In this document: in pieces, positions 10,394 through 56,370 of the stretch
Layout of the letters: the number at the start of each line of letters is the position of its first letter
How positions within the stretch are numbered: position 1 is the stretch's first letter
Source of the DNA: Escherichia phage vB_EcoS_I14
Strand: one strand, 5' to 3'
DNA length: 64,000 nt
Sequence record: PP892525.1
Program-made: the position numbers and the translations under genes
Notes under the pieces: model-generated
Database searches by the model: none
The model's input: only the letters and a program-made list of their open reading frames with translations
Told to the model about the DNA's origin: nothing

Positions 10394-10879
10394 ATGGACC
10401 ATAGAACAAGTATTGCACAAGCTATGGTTGACCGAATCTCTAAACAAATGGATGGTTCTCAACCTGATGAATATTTTAATAACCTATACGGAAACGTTTC
10501 TCGTCAAACTTATAAATTTGAGGAAATACGAGAGTTTCCTTATGTGGCAGTTCATATCGGAACTGAAACTGGGCAGTATCTTCCTTCGGGCCAACAGTGG
10601 ATGTTTTTAGAACTTCCAATCCTGGTGTACGATAAAGAGAAAACAGACATTCAAGAGCAACTTGAAAAACTCGTAGCGGATATAAAAACCGTTATTGACA
10701 CAGGTGGAAATTTAGAATATACTGTTAGTAAACCTAATGGATCGACCTTCCCATGTGAGGCAACTGATATGATCATTACATCAGTTAGTACAGATGAGGG
10801 TCTACTGGCCCCGTATGGTTTAGCAGAAATAAATGTAACAGTGAGGTATCAGCCTCCACGTAGGTCACTTCGCAGATAA
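10394..10879 (+). CDS. tail terminator-like protein (putative)
   Basis: 161 aa ORF immediately upstream of tail tube gene; synteny only. Confidence 0.4.
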   Translation: MDHRTSIAQAMVDRISKQMDGSQPDEYFNNLYGNVSRQTYKFEEIREFPYVAVHIGTETGQYLPSGQQWMFLELPILVYDKEKTDIQEQLEKLVADIKTVIDTGGNLEYTVSKPNGSTFPCEATDMIITSVSTDEGLLAPYGLAEINVTVRYQPPRRSLRR

Positions 10880-10905: not shown

Positions 10906-12312
10906 ATGTCTTTACAACTATTACGTAATACTCGAATCTTCGTGTCTACGGTTAAGACTGGTCATAATAAGACCAACACGCAAGAGATTCTAGTTCAGGA
11001 TGATATTTCTTGGGGTCAGGACAGTAACTCAACAGATATTACTGTTAATGAAGCTGGTCCGCGTCCAACTCGTGGTTCTAAACGTTTTAATGACTCTTTA
11101 AACGCGGCTGAGTGGAGTTTCTCTACTTACATCCTGCCATATAAAGATAAAACTACTAACAAACAGATTGTCCCTGACTATATGTTATGGCATGCTCTTT
11201 CTAGTGGTAAAGCTCTTAACCTAGAAGGTGATACAGGAGCACATAATAACGAAACCAATTTTATGGTTAACTTTAAAGATAACGCGTACCACGAACTGGC
11301 AATGCTGCATATCTACATCCTGACTGACAAAGCATGGAGTTACATCGACTCTTGCCAGATCAACCAGGCAGAAGTTAACGTTGATATTGAGGATATTGGT
11401 CGTGTAACTTGGTCAGGTAATGGTAACCAGCTTATTCCTTTGGATGAGCAACCATTTGACCCTGATACTGTAGGTATTGATGATGAAACTTATATGACTA
11501 TTCAGAGTTCTTATATCAAGAACAAGTTGACTATCCTGAAAATTAAGGATATGGATTCTGATAAGGCATATGATATCCCTATTACTGGGGGTACTTTCAC
11601 CATTAATAACAATATTACGTACCTAACCCCGAATATTATGTCCCGTGTAAATATTCCGATCGGTTCATTTACTGGTGCATTTGAATTAACTGGTTCACTA
11701 ACTGCCTATCTAAATGATAAATCTCTTGGTTCTATGGAACTGTACAAAGATCTTATCAAAACCTTGAAGGTAGTTAACAAGTTTGAAATTGCACTTATCC
11801 TTGGTGGTGAGTATGATGATGAACGCCCGGCAGCTGTGTTAGTTGCTAAACAGGCGCATGTTAACATTCCTACTATTGAGACTGATGATGTACTTGGTAC
11901 TTCAGTAGAGTTTAAAGCTATTCCTACAGATCTGGATACTGGTGATGAGGGTTATCTTGGTTTCTCTAACAAGTATACTAAAACCACTATGGCTAATCTG
12001 ATTGCTACAGGAGATGGCGCTAAAACTCCACCAAAACTAGTTGAATCAATCACAGTTAAATCTGCTGGTAATGTCACCTCAGTGGAGAATAGCAATACTC
12101 TACAGATGTCTGTTGAAGTAACTCCACCAGATGCTACTAATAGTGCTGTAACCTGGTCTATTTCTAGTGGTGATGCAGCTACAATTGATCCAGAATCTGG
12201 TCTATTAACTGCGGACACTACTAAGACTGGAGAAGTTACTGTTAAAGCTGTAGCTAAAGACGGTTCTGGTGTAGAAGGTACTAAGAGCATTACAGTTACT
12301 GCGGGTGGCTAA
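10906..12312 (+). CDS. tail tube protein (pb6-like) with C-terminal Ig-like (BIG2-type) domain
   Basis: 468 aa; C-terminal about 90 aa shows Ig-like pattern (VTWSISSGDAATIDPESGLLTA...TVKAVAKDGSG); position before chaperone and tape measure. Confidence 0.85.
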   Translation: MSLQLLRNTRIFVSTVKTGHNKTNTQEILVQDDISWGQDSNSTDITVNEAGPRPTRGSKRFNDSLNAAEWSFSTYILPYKDKTTNKQIVPDYMLWHALSSGKALNLEGDTGAHNNETNFMVNFKDNAYHELAMLHIYILTDKAWSYIDSCQINQAEVNVDIEDIGRVTWSGNGNQLIPLDEQPFDPDTVGIDDETYMTIQSSYIKNKLTILKIKDMDSDKAYDIPITGGTFTINNNITYLTPNIMSRVNIPIGSFTGAFELTGSLTAYLNDKSLGSMELYKDLIKTLKVVNKFEIALILGGEYDDERPAAVLVAKQAHVNIPTIETDDVLGTSVEFKAIPTDLDTGDEGYLGFSNKYTKTTMANLIATGDGAKTPPKLVESITVKSAGNVTSVENSNTLQMSVEVTPPDATNSAVTWSISSGDAATIDPESGLLTADTTKTGEVTVKAVAKDGSGVEGTKSITVTAGG

Positions 12313-13678: not shown

Positions 13679-14047
13679 ATGACTAAACAACAATACTTAA
13701 TACTTTGTGAGTCAATGGGTATAGAACCGGATCCAAAGGCTATGCCAGTTGAACTCGAAGATTTTCCACCTATTGTATCTATTAGTATGAATATTTATAA
13801 CAGTCTAATTGATTGTTTCATACCAGGTGACTTTCCTATTTTTATAGGTAAGGATAAGGCCGCATTAGGTGTTTTATTTGATATTTATGGGATTACTGAT
13901 CCTATAGAAAAAGAATTTGTTCTACACATTATCAATATATTTGATGCTAAAGCTGTAGATGCTGCACGTAAACGTGCTGAGAAGCATAAACCGCAAAACG
14001 GAAGGATTCCTAACGTTAAGCCACATGCTAGATCTCGTGCACGGTAA
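13679..14047 (+). CDS. hypothetical protein, possible frameshift-extension (gpT-like) partner of chaperone
   Basis: 122 aa ORF in the +1 frame relative to 13213..13617; that frame is open from about 13592; no SD before its ATG. Confidence 0.35.
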   Translation: MTKQQYLILCESMGIEPDPKAMPVELEDFPPIVSISMNIYNSLIDCFIPGDFPIFIGKDKAALGVLFDIYGITDPIEKEFVLHIINIFDAKAVDAARKRAEKHKPQNGRIPNVKPHARSRAR

Positions 14048-14082
14048 AAGTTTCCTCCAATGGGCGTTCCACGATGAGGCTT

Positions 14083-14116
14083 GGCTCTGGGTGATTTGCC
14101 CAGAGCCTTTTTTATT
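14083..14116 (+). terminator. rho-independent terminator
   Basis: ggctctggg-tgatttg-cccagagcc 9-bp perfect stem followed by ttttttatt. Confidence 0.7.
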
Positions 14117-14130
14117 GGGAAAAATAAAAC

Positions 14131-17100
14131 ATGACTGATAAGCTAATACGAGAATTACTAATAGACGTTAAACAGAAGGGGGCAACTCGTACTGCAAAGT
14201 CTATTGAAAACGTATCTGATGCGTTGGAAAATGCTGCTGCTGCTTCCGAACTGACAAATGAGCAGTTAGGTAAAATGCCCAAAACTCTTTATTCCATTGA
14301 GAGGGCAGCAGACAGAGCAGCGAAAAGTCTTACTAAAATGCAAGCTAGTAGGGGTATGGCTAGTATCACCAAATCTATTAATGATATTGGTGATAAACTA
14401 GATTACCTAGCTATTCAACTTATTGAAGTAACAGATAAACTAGAAATTGGATTCGATGGAGTTTCTAGATCTGTTAAAACAATGGGTAATGATGTTGCAG
14501 CTGCAACAGAAAAAGTCCAGGATAGATTATACGATACTAATAGAGCATTAGGTGGCACAGCTAGGGGTTTTAATGATACTGCTGGTGCCGCTGGTAGAGC
14601 TTCTAGAGCTATTGGTAATACTTCTGGTTCAGCACGTGGTGCAACTCGTGATTTTGCGGCAATGGCTAAGATCGGTGGTAGTCTACCTATTATGTACGCA
14701 GCTCTTGCTTCCAACATCTTCGTCTTGCAATCAGCATTTGAACAACTTAAACTAGGTGATCAGCTAAATCGTCTAGAAAAATTTGGTGTTATAGTAGGTA
14801 CTCAGACAGGTACTCCTGTTCAGACCCTTGCTAGATCACTACAAGAAGCTGCTGGATATGCTATTTCTTTTGAGGAAGCAATGAGACAGGCATCTTCAGC
14901 ATCTGCTTATGGATTTGATGCCGAACAACTTAATAAATTTGGTTTAGTAGCTCGTCGTGCGGCTGCTGTTCTTGGCGTTGATATGACTGATGCACTTAAC
15001 CGTGTAATTAAGGGCGTATCTAAACAAGAAATCGAACTTCTAGATGAACTTGGGGTCACCATCCGTCTTAATGACGCATACGCTGATTATGTTAAACAGT
15101 TAAATGCTGCAAACACAGGTATAACATATAATGTTAATAGTCTTACCACTTTCCAGAAGCAACAAGCATACGCTAACGCGGTAATTGCTGAATCTACTAA
15201 GCGTTTTGGCTACCTAGATGAAGTACTACGTGCAACTCCATGGGAGCAATTTGCTGCTAATGCAGATGCTGCACTAAGAAAAATACAACAAGCTGCTGCT
15301 AAGTATTTAGGGCCAGTAATTGATGCTATCAACACAGTATTTTACACTTCTCAGGCTTCTATATCTGCTGAAGCAGCTAGGGCCCAAGAAAAAACTAATA
15401 GACAGATAGACCCTACTAACGTTGGTGCTGTTGCTTTAAGTTTAGCTGCTTCTGAAGAAGGCTATAATAAAGCTCTAGATATGTATAAGGAATCTCTTGA
15501 TAAGCGTAATAAGCTAAAATCTGAGTTCGATAAACGAATGGAACAAGCAGATTTCTATACAAAACTAGCTATACGTCAAGTTGGTGAAGGTATTCCTATT
15601 GGTCTTGCAGCAGCAGGTGCTTCGGAGGCCAATAAGCAATTTGTAGCAGAAACTGCAGCTATGGGTCTACAAGTAACTAGACTTGGTAAGGAAGTAGAGG
15701 ATTCTACGGAGAATCTCAATGCTTGGAAATCAGCGTATCAAGCTGCTGGTGCCGCTGCTGCAAAGGCTAGTCCAGAGTTTCAGAAGCAAATTAATCTACA
15801 GAGAGATACTACTGATCCTGATGCTGTATACGATTTTAACTCTACTGTATTAAAAGGACTAACTGAGCAGCAGAAAGCGTACAATCAGACTAAGAAAACT
15901 GCTAGTGACTTAGCTAATGATATACAGAACGTTGCTCAGAATACAGATACTGCTGCTAAAACTAGTGCTACTTTAGCAGATGCTATAAAAAACATAGAGT
16001 CTCTATCTCTAGGTACTGGTAAGAGTGCTGATGAGTACGTTAAAAATCTCAACCTAGGCTACAATACCTTGTCTGAAATGAAAACTGCGTCTCAGGCCTT
16101 ATCTGAGTACGTTAAACTAACTGGTAATGAAACTAAAAATCAGTTAGCAGTTCAACAGAAAATAGCTGATGTATATAATCAAACTAAGGATAAGGAAAAA
16201 GCTCAGGAAGCTGGTAGACGTTTAGAGTTGCAACAGTTAGAAGAGCAAGAAACTGCTTTACGCCGTGTTCTTCAAACAAACCAGGGAAATAAAGCTGTTG
16301 AGAAAGAAATTGAAAAAATTCAGCTGGAGAAACTTAAGCTTACTAATCAGGGTATGGAGGCCCAGAAGAAGGTTAAGGATTACACAGATAAAATCCTGGG
16401 TGTAGATCGTGAGATAGCTCTCTTAAATAACCGTACTATGACAGATACTCAGTACCGTCTAGCACAGTTAAATCTTGAATTGACCATTGAAAAAGAGAAG
16501 TATGAATGGTATACAAAACAAGCTGATAAGCAGAAAGAAGCTGAGCAATCTAGACGTGCCCAAGCCCAAATTGAACGTGAAATCTGGAAATTCCGCCAAG
16601 ATCAGATTGCTTCAATGGCTGCTGGTAGAGAGGAAGAACAGCAAAGACAATTTACTGCTAAACCATTAATGGGAAATGCGGAGCGCTTACAGGAACAGCT
16701 AAAATTATATGAAGACTTAAAGCAGAAAACATTAGGTAATGCTGCGGCACAAGCGGAATATAATAAAAAGATAGCTGAAACTAGGGCACAACTAGCAGGT
16801 TTAAGGGCACAGAGAAATGCGGAGATGCAAGCTTCTGTTGGATCTTCTTTAGGTGCTGTGTACACTCCTACAACTGGACTATCAGGGGAAGACAAAGATT
16901 TTGCTGATATGGGAAATAGAATGGCTTCTTATGATCAGGCAATCTCTAAGTTATCTGAGCTAAACTCCGAAGCAACTGCTGTGGCTCAAAGCATGGGTAA
17001 TTTAACTAATGCTTTGATTCAGTTCTCAATGAAATCATTAGATACTACTTCCACGATCGCAGCAGGTATGCAAGCTGTATCTTCTGTGATTCAGTATAGT

Positions 17101-17811
17101 GCTAGTCAGCAGGTTAGTGCCATTGATCAGGCTATTGCAGCAGAGCAGAAACGTGATGGTAAATCAGAAGCATCTAAAGCTAAATTGAAGAAGTTGGAAG
17201 CTGAAAAGCTGAAGATTCAACAAGACGCAGCTAAGAAGCAGATTATCATCCAAACTGCAGTAGCTGTAATGCAGGCGGCAACGGCTGTTCCATACCCGTT
17301 CTCTATTCCTTTGATGGTGGCGGCAGGTTTGGCTGGTGCCTTAGCTCTTGCTCAAGCATCTTCTGCATCTGGTATGTCAAGTATTGCTGATTCTGGAGCG
17401 GATACAACTAGTTACCTAACCTTAGGAGAGCGTCAGAAGAATATAGATGTGTCTATGTCTGCTAATGCTGGTGAATTATCTTATATCCGTGGCGATAAAG
17501 GCTTAGGCGGTGCTAACTCTTTCGTTCCTCGTGCTGAGGGTGGTAACATGTACCCAGGGGTTAGCTATCAAATGGGTGAGCATGGTACAGAAGTAGTTAC
17601 ACCTATGGTTCCTATGAAAGCTACACCTAATGATGAGCTAAAAACCTCATCTAACTCAACTTCAGGAAGACCTATCATCCTGAATATTAGTGCTATGGAT
17701 GCTGCAAGTTTTAGAGAGTTTGCTTCTAGTAATAGTAGTGCTCTAAGAGACGCAGTAGAATTAGCTCTGAATGAGAACGGTGCTAGTCTGAAAACATTAG
17801 GAAATTCTTAA
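14131..17811 (+). CDS. tape measure protein (pb2-like)
   Basis: 1226 aa, long alpha-helical/coiled-coil Ala/Gln/Lys-rich protein with hydrophobic segment near C-terminus; position and size match T5 pb2. Confidence 0.9.
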   Translation: MTDKLIRELLIDVKQKGATRTAKSIENVSDALENAAAASELTNEQLGKMPKTLYSIERAADRAAKSLTKMQASRGMASITKSINDIGDKLDYLAIQLIEVTDKLEIGFDGVSRSVKTMGNDVAAATEKVQDRLYDTNRALGGTARGFNDTAGAAGRASRAIGNTSGSARGATRDFAAMAKIGGSLPIMYAALASNIFVLQSAFEQLKLGDQLNRLEKFGVIVGTQTGTPVQTLARSLQEAAGYAISFEEAMRQASSASAYGFDAEQLNKFGLVARRAAAVLGVDMTDALNRVIKGVSKQEIELLDELGVTIRLNDAYADYVKQLNAANTGITYNVNSLTTFQKQQAYANAVIAESTKRFGYLDEVLRATPWEQFAANADAALRKIQQAAAKYLGPVIDAINTVFYTSQASISAEAARAQEKTNRQIDPTNVGAVALSLAASEEGYNKALDMYKESLDKRNKLKSEFDKRMEQADFYTKLAIRQVGEGIPIGLAAAGASEANKQFVAETAAMGLQVTRLGKEVEDSTENLNAWKSAYQAAGAAAAKASPEFQKQINLQRDTTDPDAVYDFNSTVLKGLTEQQKAYNQTKKTASDLANDIQNVAQNTDTAAKTSATLADAIKNIESLSLGTGKSADEYVKNLNLGYNTLSEMKTASQALSEYVKLTGNETKNQLAVQQKIADVYNQTKDKEKAQEAGRRLELQQLEEQETALRRVLQTNQGNKAVEKEIEKIQLEKLKLTNQGMEAQKKVKDYTDKILGVDREIALLNNRTMTDTQYRLAQLNLELTIEKEKYEWYTKQADKQKEAEQSRRAQAQIEREIWKFRQDQIASMAAGREEEQQRQFTAKPLMGNAERLQEQLKLYEDLKQKTLGNAAAQAEYNKKIAETRAQLAGLRAQRNAEMQASVGSSLGAVYTPTTGLSGEDKDFADMGNRMASYDQAISKLSELNSEATAVAQSMGNLTNALIQFSMKSLDTTSTIAAGMQAVSSVIQYSASQQVSAIDQAIAAEQKRDGKSEASKAKLKKLEAEKLKIQQDAAKKQIIIQTAVAVMQAATAVPYPFSIPLMVAAGLAGALALAQASSASGMSSIADSGADTTSYLTLGERQKNIDVSMSANAGELSYIRGDKGLGGANSFVPRAEGGNMYPGVSYQMGEHGTEVVTPMVPMKATPNDELKTSSNSTSGRPIILNISAMDAASFREFASSNSSALRDAVELALNENGASLKTLGNS

Positions 17812-17818
17812 AACTGGA

Positions 17819-17845
17819 GGAGGACTTTGAGTCCTCCTTTTCTTT
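17819..17845 (+). terminator. rho-independent terminator after tape measure gene
   Basis: ggaggac-tttga-gtcctcc hairpin followed by ttttcttt. Confidence 0.7.
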
Positions 17846-17864
17846 ATGGAAAAATAAAAATTTC

Positions 17865-17893
17865 TTGATAAAATTTTCTAATACTATTATAAT
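17865..17893 (+). promoter_or_regulatory. strong sigma70 consensus-like promoter inside late operon (TTGATA-17-TATAAT)
   Basis: cttgataaaattttctaatactattataat; followed by AT-rich leader and strong RBS aaagaggagaaattaactATG at 17903..17923. Confidence 0.6.
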
Positions 17894-17920
17894 ATTGTTA
17901 TTAAAGAGGAGAAATTAACT

Positions 17921-18535
17921 ATGAGATTACCAGACCCATACACGAATCCAGAACTTTCAGGCTTAGGATTCGAAAGTGTTAACCTGATTGATAATGACCC
18001 AGTAATTCGTGATGAGTTACCAAATGGTAAAGTTAACGAAGTTAAGGTATCCGCTCAATACTGGGGTATAAATATTTCTTACCCAGAATTATTTCCAGAT
18101 GAATATAGTGTTCTAGATGCTTTTATTCTAGAATACAAAAGGACTGGTGGTTATATAGATGTTATATTACCACAATACGAAGCTTTTAGAGTTAGAGGTA
18201 ATACTAGTCTAGTAAATATACCTGCTGGACAGAAGGGTTCTAATATAACTATGGATACAAAAGGACTTCTTACAGGTACTCCAAAACCGGGGGATCTATT
18301 TAAGCTGTCTAACCACCCAAAAGTATATAAAATAACATCATTTAATAAATCAGGTAATACATGGTCCATAAACTTATACCCTGATTTATTTATAACTACT
18401 ACTGGAGCGGAGAAGCCAGTATTTAATGGAATACTATTTAGAACAAAACTCATGAATGGTGATGCTTTTGGATCTACACTAAATAATAATGGAACATACT
18501 CCAACATCTCATTAAACTTACGGGAAAGTCTATGA
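17921..18535 (+). CDS. distal tail protein (Dit, pb9-like)
   Basis: 204 aa ORF after tape measure; length equals T5 pb9 (recalled); strong RBS. Confidence 0.7.
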   Translation: MRLPDPYTNPELSGLGFESVNLIDNDPVIRDELPNGKVNEVKVSAQYWGINISYPELFPDEYSVLDAFILEYKRTGGYIDVILPQYEAFRVRGNTSLVNIPAGQKGSNITMDTKGLLTGTPKPGDLFKLSNHPKVYKITSFNKSGNTWSINLYPDLFITTTGAEKPVFNGILFRTKLMNGDAFGSTLNNNGTYSNISLNLRESL

Positions 18536-53390: not shown

Positions 53391-55265
53391 TTATTTAGCT
53401 CGAATATCCTGATGTTTCACCCTGCCCATAACCTCATGCTGTTTGCCTGGGTTAAATGGACGAGCACCTGGATTTCCAAGATACCCACAAACTCGACGAG
53501 TTACTTCAAGAGTTTCAGGGTCATGATTACCACAGATAGGGCACTTAAACCCATCTTCGGATGCTATTGTTTCACCTAAGAATCCACATTTACCACAAGA
53601 ATCCACTGGAGTATTAATACCGAAGTAATGAACCTTACTAGCAGCATAATTAATAACCCATTCCAGTGCATCTGGGAATCGTTTCATATCCGGTAGTTCT
53701 ACATAGGAAATACACCCACCAGAAGCAATCGGAGTAAAGTTAGATTCATAATCAAATTTGACGTTAGGAGCAACTTTACGTTCCACATCAAGGTGGTGCG
53801 AGTTAGTGTAGTATCCTTTAGACAGAATATCTTCATGCTCTGGGAAATATTCACGGTCTAGACGACAAAAACGATCACATAGGGATTCTGATGGTGTAGC
53901 ATACAGGCTATAACCTAACTTAGTTTCTTCCTTCTTCTGATCGACTCTATCCCGCATGTACTGCAATACACGCTGAACAAACTTGATGCAGGTCTCGGAC
54001 ATTGTGTCTACATCTTTGCCAAACATGAACTGTAGCATTTCATGGCAACCAATATACCCTAGAGATACAGAAGCACGGTTATAGAAATGATCGAATACAT
54101 ATTCATCAGGCTCCAAGCGTAAACCAAAGGCTCCTGACATATAGAGGATAGGTGCAGCTTTAGCTTGGATGTATTTTAAGCGATCAACTCTCCACTCCAA
54201 TGCTTTTAACGCTGTATCCACACGTAGCTCAAGCAAATCAAAGAATAGATCAATATTTCCTTCAGCTTCGATAGCAATTCTAGGCAAGTTTACAGAAACA
54301 ACACCTAAGTTATTACGACCGGCAGTTTCACCATCTTCTGTAGCAGCTAAGAATGAACGACAGCCCATAGAAACTTTATAGTCTCCAGTAACTTCCACAA
54401 CCTTATCATAGCTGATATAATCTGGATACATACGTTCAGCAGTACATTTCATAGCTAACTTCTTGATGTCATAATTAACATCCCCTGGTTTCATATTTAC
54501 GCCATCACGAAGTACAAATACCAGTTTCGGGAAGATAGCTGTACGTTTATTGATACCTAAACCATCCATGCGTACTTTGAGTATTGCTTTCTGTACTAGA
54601 CGTGCTTCCCAAGAAGTTCCCAGACCAAAGCCAAAGGTAATAAATGGACTCTGACCATTAGAGTTGAACATGGTATTGATTTCATATTCTAGACCCTGAC
54701 AGGCATCATAAACTTCTTTTTCAGTCATCTCCGTAGCCATTACTGATGCTTTGGCCTCATCCTTAGTCCAACGTTTTGCAAACGCATGATTTTTGTCATA
54801 GGATTTACGAACATAAGGAGCTAATACTTCATCAAGGCGATCCACGGAAGTACCACCATACTGATGGGAACTAACCTGTGTGATAATCTGAGCTGTAATA
54901 GCCGCCGCAGTAGTGATAGAGTTTGGAGTGCTAATTTCAGCATTACCAACCTTCATACCATTCTTCAACATATCTTCCAGAGCTACCAGACAACAGTTAG
55001 TCATGCCTAATGCAGCATAATCAGCATCATGGAAATGAATATCCCCAATCATATGAGCATTTCGAATCTGAATTGGCATTTCTTCTAGAATCAGATACTT
55101 ACTCAATTCACCTGCAAGCATATCCCTTTGTGTAGGGAAACGTTCTGAGGGTTTATTGGCATTATTAAACAGCAGTTCTTCATCTGCTGACCCTTCGATA
55201 ATCTCTTTGCAGTTTCTAATTAACGCCTGCATTCCTTTATACTTTAGTTCTTCATTGCGATTCAT
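53391..55265 (-). CDS. nrdD: anaerobic ribonucleoside-triphosphate reductase
   Basis: 624 aa; C-terminal glycyl-radical motif (RVCGYLG) and Zn-ribbon cysteines (CGKCGF...CPICG). Confidence 0.85.
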   Translation of the reverse strand: MNRNEELKYKGMQALIRNCKEIIEGSADEELLFNNANKPSERFPTQRDMLAGELSKYLILEEMPIQIRNAHMIGDIHFHDADYAALGMTNCCLVALEDMLKNGMKVGNAEISTPNSITTAAAITAQIITQVSSHQYGGTSVDRLDEVLAPYVRKSYDKNHAFAKRWTKDEAKASVMATEMTEKEVYDACQGLEYEINTMFNSNGQSPFITFGFGLGTSWEARLVQKAILKVRMDGLGINKRTAIFPKLVFVLRDGVNMKPGDVNYDIKKLAMKCTAERMYPDYISYDKVVEVTGDYKVSMGCRSFLAATEDGETAGRNNLGVVSVNLPRIAIEAEGNIDLFFDLLELRVDTALKALEWRVDRLKYIQAKAAPILYMSGAFGLRLEPDEYVFDHFYNRASVSLGYIGCHEMLQFMFGKDVDTMSETCIKFVQRVLQYMRDRVDQKKEETKLGYSLYATPSESLCDRFCRLDREYFPEHEDILSKGYYTNSHHLDVERKVAPNVKFDYESNFTPIASGGCISYVELPDMKRFPDALEWVINYAASKVHYFGINTPVDSCGKCGFLGETIASEDGFKCPICGNHDPETLEVTRRVCGYLGNPGARPFNPGKQHEVMGRVKHQDIRAK

Positions 55266-55295
55266 TATACCCTCCTTCTCTAACTAAGACTACTA

Positions 55296-55324
55296 TTATA
55301 ACTCATTCGAAGGCGGATGTCAAC
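55296..55324 (-). promoter_or_regulatory. consensus sigma70 promoter for nrdD (TTGACA-17-TATAAT)
   Basis: Reverse complement: ttgaca tccgccttcgaatgagt tataat, about 30 nt upstream of nrdD ATG. Confidence 0.65.
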
Positions 55325-55375
55325 AATATTTTACTATAAAGTTCTATAACATGATCTGAGTCAAAAAATTTTATT

Positions 55376-55404
55376 TGCCAACCTCTACTAAAAATAGTAT
55401 AATC
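55376..55404 (+). promoter_or_regulatory. early sigma70 promoter (TTGCCA-17-TATAAT), distal of two tandem + promoters
   Basis: ttgcca acctctactaaaaatag tataat, about 200 nt upstream of phoH. Confidence 0.55.
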
Positions 55405-55516
55405 ACGCACCCGTGTACGCGATATAAAATGATTATCTAGTACCATACATCTCCCAATAAAAGCAAGCAAATTTTTTATTTAAATGCAATATCATAGGCT
55501 TATTTAAAATTGTAGT

Positions 55517-55545
55517 TGCTTTCTCCCGTATATATTGGTATAATA
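55517..55545 (+). promoter_or_regulatory. early sigma70 promoter for phoH (TTGCTT-17-TATAAT)
   Basis: ttgctt tctcccgtatatattgg tataat. Confidence 0.6.
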
Positions 55546-55608
55546 TATTTGTAAGTTGATAAACAAGATCTTTTTGTTGATCCTCTGTTAGCGAAGTACA
55601 CTATAGGA

Positions 55609-56370
55609 GTGTTATTTATGGGAAAAGCACGTCAAAAAAGAGAGAACCGCAATGGTTCAAGAAAGCGTGGCAACAAGTACGAGAGTAACGTAATTCAAGC
55701 AGATTTCTCTGGTGATTACGCCAATCCAGTTGCTAAATCCCTAGTTGGTAAAAACCGTGAGCAAAAATCATATATCAATATGATCAAGAACAACACAGTG
55801 ACTGTGGGTATCGGTGAACCAGGTACTGGTAAAACCTTTATCCCGTCCGTTCTTGCAGCTCAGGAACTCGTAGACATTCACTCAGATATTGAGCAAGTGA
55901 TCCTCGTGCGTCCGAACGAACCTCTAGGTAAATCTCTTGGTATGCTCCCAGGTGATCTAGCAGAAAAGCTAGAGCCTTGGTTGGAACCAATAGCCGATGG
56001 CATGAAATGGGCAATCGGTGATCACGCCTATAAAGGATATGTCGAACGTCAGAAAATCAAATTCCTGGCTATCGAACATGCCCGTGGCCGAACTTTCAAC
56101 AACTCCTATGTAATTGTCGATGAAGCTCAGAATATTTCCGTTGAGGCAATGATTTGTCTTCTAACTCGTGTAGGGCAAGACTGCCGTTTAATTATCTGCG
56201 GAGATATAGCTCAGAAAGACATTAAAGGTGACTCAGGTCTAGCACTCCTTATGGAAGTCTATGAGAAATACGAAAATGCCCCATTCTCAATGATCGAATT
56301 GATTGATAACGTTCGTTCTGTTGAGTCTAAAGCATTCTATGACATCTTTAAAGACATGGGGAAGGTGTAA
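55609..56370 (+). CDS. phoH: PhoH-like ATPase
   Basis: 253 aa; Walker A (GEPGTGKTF), Walker B (VIVDEAQN) and PhoH C-terminal pattern. Confidence 0.85.
   Translation: MLFMGKARQKRENRNGSRKRGNKYESNVIQADFSGDYANPVAKSLVGKNREQKSYINMIKNNTVTVGIGEPGTGKTFIPSVLAAQELVDIHSDIEQVILVRPNEPLGKSLGMLPGDLAEKLEPWLEPIADGMKWAIGDHAYKGYVERQKIKFLAIEHARGRTFNNSYVIVDEAQNISVEAMICLLTRVGQDCRLIICGDIAQKDIKGDSGLALLMEVYEKYENAPFSMIELIDNVRSVESKAFYDIFKDMGKV

Follow-up and report, generated by a model that had tools for sequence, protein, structure and literature searches.

The promoter between the tape-measure and Dit genes of Escherichia phage vB_EcoS_I14 is very probably the orthologue of the T5 late promoter P-G25

Introduction

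As a first-pass annotation of Escherichia phage vB_EcoS_I14 had pointed to a consensus host-type promoter and a very strong ribosome binding site (RBS) in the midst of the late structural operon, we asked what this segment is, whether it can be expected to work as a promoter and where its sequence comes from. The analysis covered one stretch of 64,000 nucleotides (sequence record PP892525.1), which is called the window in the following. Its first 25 kb, which form the late region, are 92-95% identical to the best among the matches listed, and the window is that of a T5-like Tequintavirus. With a probability of roughly 0.93, the segment in question is the orthologue of the T5 late promoter P-G25, followed by the natural start region for translation of the distal tail protein, Dit. 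Judged by analogy with T5, the site can be regarded as real, functional and ordinary, and as a previously known one that bears a name in the T5 reference genome. Its discovery value is accordingly small, with the promoter mapped in vivo in T5 and both promoter and RBS already in use as biotechnology parts. Slightly new are a spacer that is better conserved than the genes beside it, the variable discriminator and a public genome that lacks 24 nt of the element.

Promoter anatomy and flanking genes

Direct reading of the sequence located TTGATA-17-TATAAT at 17865-17893, between the tape-measure terminator and the Dit gene as had been described (Table 1). With a -35 hexamer close to TTGACA, a -10 hexamer matching TATAAT, a total of 11/12 consensus positions and a spacer of 17 nt, which is within the range of 16-18 nt, the assignment as a host-type (sigma70) promoter is borne out. 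The core lies 25 nt past the terminator hairpin and 27 nt ahead of the Dit start codon, and behind TATAAT the sequence continues with attgtt and ATTAAAGAGGAGAAATTAACT up to the ATG at 17921.

In a scan of 12-24 kb the site at 17865 was the top consensus match (11/12). When the whole window was scanned on both strands, eight sites with at least 11/12 matches were observed, compared to 3.1 +/- 1.6 in first-order Markov simulations, from which the chance expectation was taken. Since about three such sites are expected in the simulations, the hexamers alone are not beyond chance, and what raises the promoter above chance is where it lies, how well it is conserved and that T5 has an annotated promoter at the homologous site. 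Among the matches elsewhere in the window, a perfect 12/12 TTGACA-17-TATAAT (-35 at 55323, minus strand) faces an NrdD-like gene (53391-55265), and an 11/12 TTGCCA-17-TATAAT (-35 at 55375, plus strand) faces a PhoH-like gene (55609-56370); these back-to-back promoters in 55266-55608 form a divergent early-promoter pair.

Upstream of the -35 hexamer, the A/T-rich block at 17846-17864 may act as an UP element. An AT-rich block at -43, AAAAATT, belongs to the T5-type promoter consensus (PMC3326045), and T5 promoters are marked with an UP element in the legend of Fig. S5 in Klimuk 2020 (PMC7472727). The transcription start was placed with the help of the T5 reference record AY543070, in which three promoter features of 75 nt each carry the -35 hexamer at feature positions 21-26. 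As these features fit a frame of -55 to +20 with an A at +1, A17900 is the predicted +1 in this phage.

In the leader that would result, the Shine-Dalgarno:anti-Shine-Dalgarno duplex reaches -9.1 kcal/mol, which is rank 9 when the 60 gene starts of the window are compared. The Dit start region, at -1.3 kcal/mol, is nearly unstructured with a stability no greater than that of shuffled sequences. The RBS, previously called very strong, is therefore strong indeed, but with rank 9 of 60 it is not extreme. A structured leader or riboswitch was rejected, as the leader comprises just 21 nt and is essentially unstructured.

On the upstream side, the tape-measure open reading frame (ORF) codes for 1226 aa and ends with TAA at 17809-17811. 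The terminator stem, with 11 pairs in the terminator scan, starts 5 nt past this stop codon and runs into the tail TCTTTAT. Folding of 17808-17852 led to a minimum free energy of -16.7 kcal/mol (z -3.1 compared to shuffles). A G+C-rich hairpin, a U-rich tract, here interrupted, and the direct vicinity of a stop codon are the features of a rho-independent terminator, and in T5, AKFV33 and Stitch such a terminator is annotated at the corresponding place. The identity of the flanking genes as tape measure and Dit, already proposed in the first-pass annotation, was confirmed by the match to phrog_3779 and by matches to pb9 structures, respectively. Downstream, the pb3-like gene starts in overlap with the stop codon of Dit, and translational coupling of the two is probable.

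A match to the Rfam family ctRNA_pND324 at 17815-17894, which spans the terminator hairpin and the A/T-rich part of the promoter, stayed below threshold (24.2 bits compared to a gathering score of 45, E = 0.47) and was treated as chance. Further observations were made at the other end of the tape-measure gene. Between the chaperone-gene terminator and pb2, T5 has T5.141, an additional ORF of some 750 nt (AY543070 95777..96587). In the corresponding part of the window (14047-14131) the tape-measure gene begins 24 nt past the chaperone-gene terminator and a counterpart of T5.141 appears to be absent, which may reflect an insertion in T5 or a difference in annotation. A 59-aa ORF in another frame (13959-14138) extends over the end of the gene for the tail assembly chaperone (13679-14047) and may be a frameshift extension of it; a strong terminator-like hairpin (14083-14107) is located within this ORF.

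Table 1. Features of the tape measure-Dit junction and its neighbours (positions in the window).
Feature	Position	Strand	Basis
Tape measure/pore-forming tail tip protein gene (pb2 homologue)	14131..17811	+	phrog_3779, E=0, full length; homologous to T5.140 Pb2
Intrinsic terminator: hairpin 17816-17840 (GGAGGAGGAC-TTTGA-GTCCTCC...) and T-rich tail TCTTTATGG	17816..17849	+	terminator scan, RNA fold
A/T-rich block ATGGAAAAATAAAAATTTC, about -54 to -36, UP-element-like	17846..17864	+	sequence reading
-35 hexamer TTGATA, 5/6 of TTGACA	17865..17870	+	sequence reading, consensus scan
A/T-rich spacer of 17 nt between the hexamers	17871..17887	+	alignment with T5
-10 hexamer TATAAT, 6/6	17888..17893	+	sequence reading, consensus scan
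Discriminator ATTGTT	17894..17899	+	alignment of relatives
Predicted transcription start +1, A, 7 nt past the -10 hexamer	17900	+	AY543070 feature frame
Leader of 21 nt, AUUAAAGAGGAGAAAUUAACU, with Shine-Dalgarno GAGGAG at 17906-17911, 9 nt ahead of AUG	17900..17920	+	sequence, Shine-Dalgarno pairing
Gene for the distal tail protein Dit (pb9 homologue), opening the transcription unit	17921..18535	+	PDB 8hqz, 7qg9, 4jmq, E 1e-132 to 7e-114; phrog_1302, phrog_31
pb3-like gene, overlapping the Dit stop codon	18532-21381	+	ORF positions

Identity to the T5 late promoter P-G25

The T5 reference record AY543070 labels the homologous 75 nt "promoter P-G 25" (92013..92087, complement), and this feature is located between the rho-independent terminator that follows Pb2 and the T5.139 start. 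It is this GenBank annotation that ties the name PG25 to the sequence. An independent T5 record, AY587007, names the homologous place "putative late promoter T5P39", and in the record of AKFV33 both a terminator and a promoter are annotated there. Alignment to known T5 promoters, suggested as a check in the first-pass annotation, revealed a clear relationship, as 74 of the 75 bases of the P-G25 feature are identical in the window and the only exception is the spacer base T17879, which is C in T5. Orthology is thus indicated both by this identity and by the position between the Pb2 terminator and pb9. P-G25 itself is said to have been defined originally by Gentz and Bujard in 1985 and by Brunel et al. 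in 1983.

The correspondence extends to the other late promoters. Coding-strand sites with at least 11/12 matches occur in the late region only at 956, 10695 and 17865, and these three match one-to-one the T5 promoter upstream of oad, P-J5 and P-G25. The P-J5 homologue (10695-10723) lies a short way ahead of the gene for the major tail protein (10906-12312).

From these features the following course of events can be proposed. Transcripts of the tape-measure gene would be stopped, at least partly, at the intrinsic terminator 17816-17849, with ends at 17841-17849; the efficiency of this terminator is a presumed element of the scheme. The E. coli sigma70 RNA polymerase would bind the A/T-rich upstream block together with TTGATA-17-TATAAT and start transcription from P-G25 at about A17900. 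The mRNA, with its short unstructured leader of 21 nt and a good Shine-Dalgarno sequence, would then drive expression of Dit and of the tail-tip genes downstream (pb3-like, pb4-like and following).

Conservation among relatives

A region of 181 nt around the site was found to be 100% identical in dozens of T5-like genomes, and the promoter/RBS sequence is present in 116 phage records at an identity of at least 99%, with 442 records showing a match. The spacer of 109 nt between the tape-measure and Dit genes shares 91.7-95.4% identity with T5, Stitch, phiR2-01 and others, compared to 74-81% for the adjacent 300 nt of tape-measure and Dit coding sequence in the same genomes. Across the Demerecviridae, the terminator-promoter module between the two genes is more conserved than the genes that surround it.

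Within the module, the terminator stem, TTTTCTTTATGGAAAAATAAAAATTTC, the -35 and -10 hexamers and AAGAGGAGAAATTAACTATGAGA are invariant or nearly so among 32 Markadamsvirinae relatives, with the -35 TTGATA being strictly invariant in this set. The A/T-rich block at 17846-17864 is likewise invariant or nearly so among the Tequintavirus and Epseptimavirus relatives compared, and the -10 TATAAT is invariant in every relative compared, those from Klebsiella and Vibrio among them. In a Klebsiella Sugarlandvirus, a terminator and TTGAAA-17-TATAAT (11/12) are present between the tape-measure and Dit genes, and Vibrio phage Ceto has TTGACT-16-TATAAT (11/12) at this place. As the arrangement, either with a terminator or with the promoter alone, recurs in the Klebsiella and Vibrio relatives, a promoter between the tape-measure and Dit genes is a conserved feature of Demerecviridae. 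In the Klebsiella phage pKMKP103, a "hypothetical protein" of 32 aa is annotated over the homologous terminator-promoter spacer (L033:599-694); this is probably a spurious gene call on a regulatory region.

Transcription in T5 and late timing

All three gene classes of T5 are transcribed by the sigma70 holoenzyme, and strong sigma70 promoters have long been known ahead of both early and late genes (Klimuk 2020, PMC7472727). In the same study, primer-extension products of early promoters were detected at 20 min, those of PG25 appeared from 30 min and were still accumulating thereafter, and P-J5 and P-G25 served together as late markers. A strong sigma70 promoter ahead of a late gene, which the first-pass annotation had considered unexpected, is thus a known property of T5, where it carries the name P-G25 (AY543070; PMC7472727). 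The transcription start in vivo, for which primer extension had been suggested, has been demonstrated for PG25 of T5 in this published work (PMC7472727). By analogy, the promoter at 17865 would also be late in this phage. The delayed firing of the late sigma70 promoters of T5 is a recognised puzzle, to which the window adds nothing new.

According to Klimuk 2020 (PMC7472727), the discriminator is the main difference between early and late T5 promoters. Among the relatives compared here, it is in the discriminator that the promoter varies (ATTGTT vs AATTGTATC), and the invariant stretch of the 109-nt spacer is TTTTCTTTATGGAAAAATAAAAATTTCTTGATAAAATTTTC. It is conceivable, but in our opinion rather doubtful, that the cis-determinant of late timing is the conserved terminator-promoter spacer, or the placement behind a terminator, and not the discriminator. 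If true, the module would offer a handle on how T5 keeps near-consensus sigma70 promoters silent.

Four other explanations of the segment were weighed, and the data speak in favour of none of them. Expression of Dit and the tip genes might come mainly from read-through that starts at the P-J5 homologue at 10695, with P-G25 acting just as a booster. The upstream TTGACA-17-TATACT is equally good, and termination in between may be partial due to the interrupted T-tract in TCTTTATGG. However, the promoter elements are invariant while the neighbouring codons drift, which argues for selection on the promoter, and transcripts initiated at PG25 have been detected in T5-infected cells (PMC7472727). We therefore consider a main role of read-through unlikely.

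Being of near-consensus sigma70 type, the promoter of this phage might also fire once the second-step-transfer DNA has entered the cell, and would then not be late-specific. The sequence has all features of a strong constitutive promoter, and a review lists Pj5 and Pg25 as strong constitutive promoters used in Cupriavidus necator (PMC8570001). Against this stands the appearance of the PG25 product in T5 only at 30 min, that is after the 20 min of the early promoters (PMC7472727), together with the fact that the window differs from T5 P-G25 at a single spacer base, and so we regard firing from DNA entry onwards as very unlikely. A chance match to the consensus without promoter function, for which the roughly three sites of at least 11/12 expected compared to eight observed leave room, is effectively refuted and hardly credible for an intergenic site directly after a terminator and directly before a gene, whose conservation far exceeds that of its flanks and which in T5 is an annotated promoter and gives rise to transcripts in vivo (PMC7472727).

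Relation to expression vectors

The first-pass annotation had also noted a near identity with the promoter and RBS of T5-derived expression systems. This likeness has to be divided: it holds for the RBS, with 24-25 identical nt, but not for the promoter core, which differs. The sequence ATTAAAGAGGAGAAATTAACTATG at 17900-17923 is base for base the RBS ("RBSII") of the pQE, pQIK and pCA24N vectors, and in the vectors it begins directly behind the EcoRI site, with the base that matches the predicted +1 of P-G25. In the literature the element of pQE30 and pDS56/RBSII is referred to as "synthetic ribosomal binding site RBSII". Base for base, this widely used "synthetic" RBSII is the natural leader of a T5-type Dit gene. 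We assume that pQE vectors continue with ATGAGA (Met-Arg of "MRGS-His6"), by which the identity would reach 27 nt. RBSII is presumably derived from the RBS under the T5 promoter PG25, as we understand the Bujard/Roche descriptions; a literature search led to no paper that states this derivation. As the sequence is found in many phage records, derivation from phage to vector is the most likely direction. The element also appears in published primers: GAATTCATTAAAGAGGAGAAATTAACTATG, with 24 identical nt, is part of those for pQIK, which derives from pQE, and for pCA24N, the vector of the ASKA library.

A search in complete E. coli genomes gave one match, the 4668-bp "plasmid unnamed3" (NZ_CP097216.1, locus 330-520) of E. 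coli strain BE311 from piglet faeces. This plasmid is a pQE-type vector with the order XhoI-AAATCATAAAAAATTTATTTGCTT-lacO-...GAATTC-ATTAAAGAGGAGAAATTAACTATGA, and it shares 25 nt with the window (17900-17924). Its promoter has the -35 hexamer TTGCTT with a lac operator directly behind it, and this core is not shared with the window. The BE311 vector furthermore carries an Lpp-OmpA-type fusion, TEM bla and a T5/lac promoter with one lac operator and without a -10, a state that corresponds to the operator-to-operator promoter deletion reported for such vectors (PMC2655282). When the promoter/RBS region was searched against the natural plasmids of PLSDB, chance A/T-rich matches and no vectors were found.

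The identity to RBSII is of practical relevance, as it can trigger false calls of vector contamination. One T5-like genome, IMGVR_UViG_2974606035_000001 (109,306 bp; L009:1380-1570), is otherwise identical to the window around the site and lacks exactly the 24 nt of ATTAAAGAGGAGAAATTAACTATG, so that the RBS and the start codon of Dit are removed. This gap is most likely an artefact of vector screening or trimming, not biology. For the window itself, vector contamination or a chimeric assembly, to which 24-27 nt identical to pQE/pDS vectors could point, was rejected as practically excluded: the elements that flank the RBS in the vectors, namely EcoRI site, lac operator and His-tag, are missing, a full-length Dit is read in frame from the ATG, the sequence recurs in the 116 phage records mentioned above, and all 14 exact 27-mer matches in IMG/VR sit in contigs of 107-122 kb, which is the size of T5-like genomes, with the same contig names as the Dit loci.

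Comparison with known systems

The closest known system is P-G25 of T5, which shares with the window its position, the -35 and -10 hexamers, the spacer length of 17 nt, the leader and the RBS. The two differ in that the flanking genes are just 74-80% identical, and that timing and start site of PG25 have been measured in T5 and are predictions for this phage. The P-J5 homologue at 10695-10723 resembles P-G25 in its class, strand, 17-nt spacing and the A at the predicted +1. Unlike P-G25, it has the hexamers TTGACA/TATACT and lies inside a coding ORF (10394-10879) with no terminator ahead.

The RBSII vectors (pDS56/RBSII, pQE, pQIK, pCA24N) contain the same ATTAAAGAGGAGAAATTAACTATG, but joined to a tag and to a different promoter. 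This vector promoter, known as the "T5 promoter" in the pQE type, shares just the upstream A/T-rich block with the window (ATAAAAAATTTATTTGCTT vs AATAAAAATTTCTTGATA) and has a lac operator where the window has its spacer. We take it to be a lacO-bearing derivative of PN25, a pre-early promoter, which would belong to another temporal class and another locus (the first-step-transfer region) than P-G25. As the BE311 copy has lost its -10 region, the difference in the core was read from the -35 hexamer and the operator behind it.

T4-type phages and others with their own sigma factor or polymerase solve the same task, namely the late switch-on of virion genes. The late promoters of T4 have no -35 element and require gp55/gp33. 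In contrast, a complete sigma70 promoter is present at the site described here, and every gene class of T5 relies on the sigma70 holoenzyme (PMC7472727).
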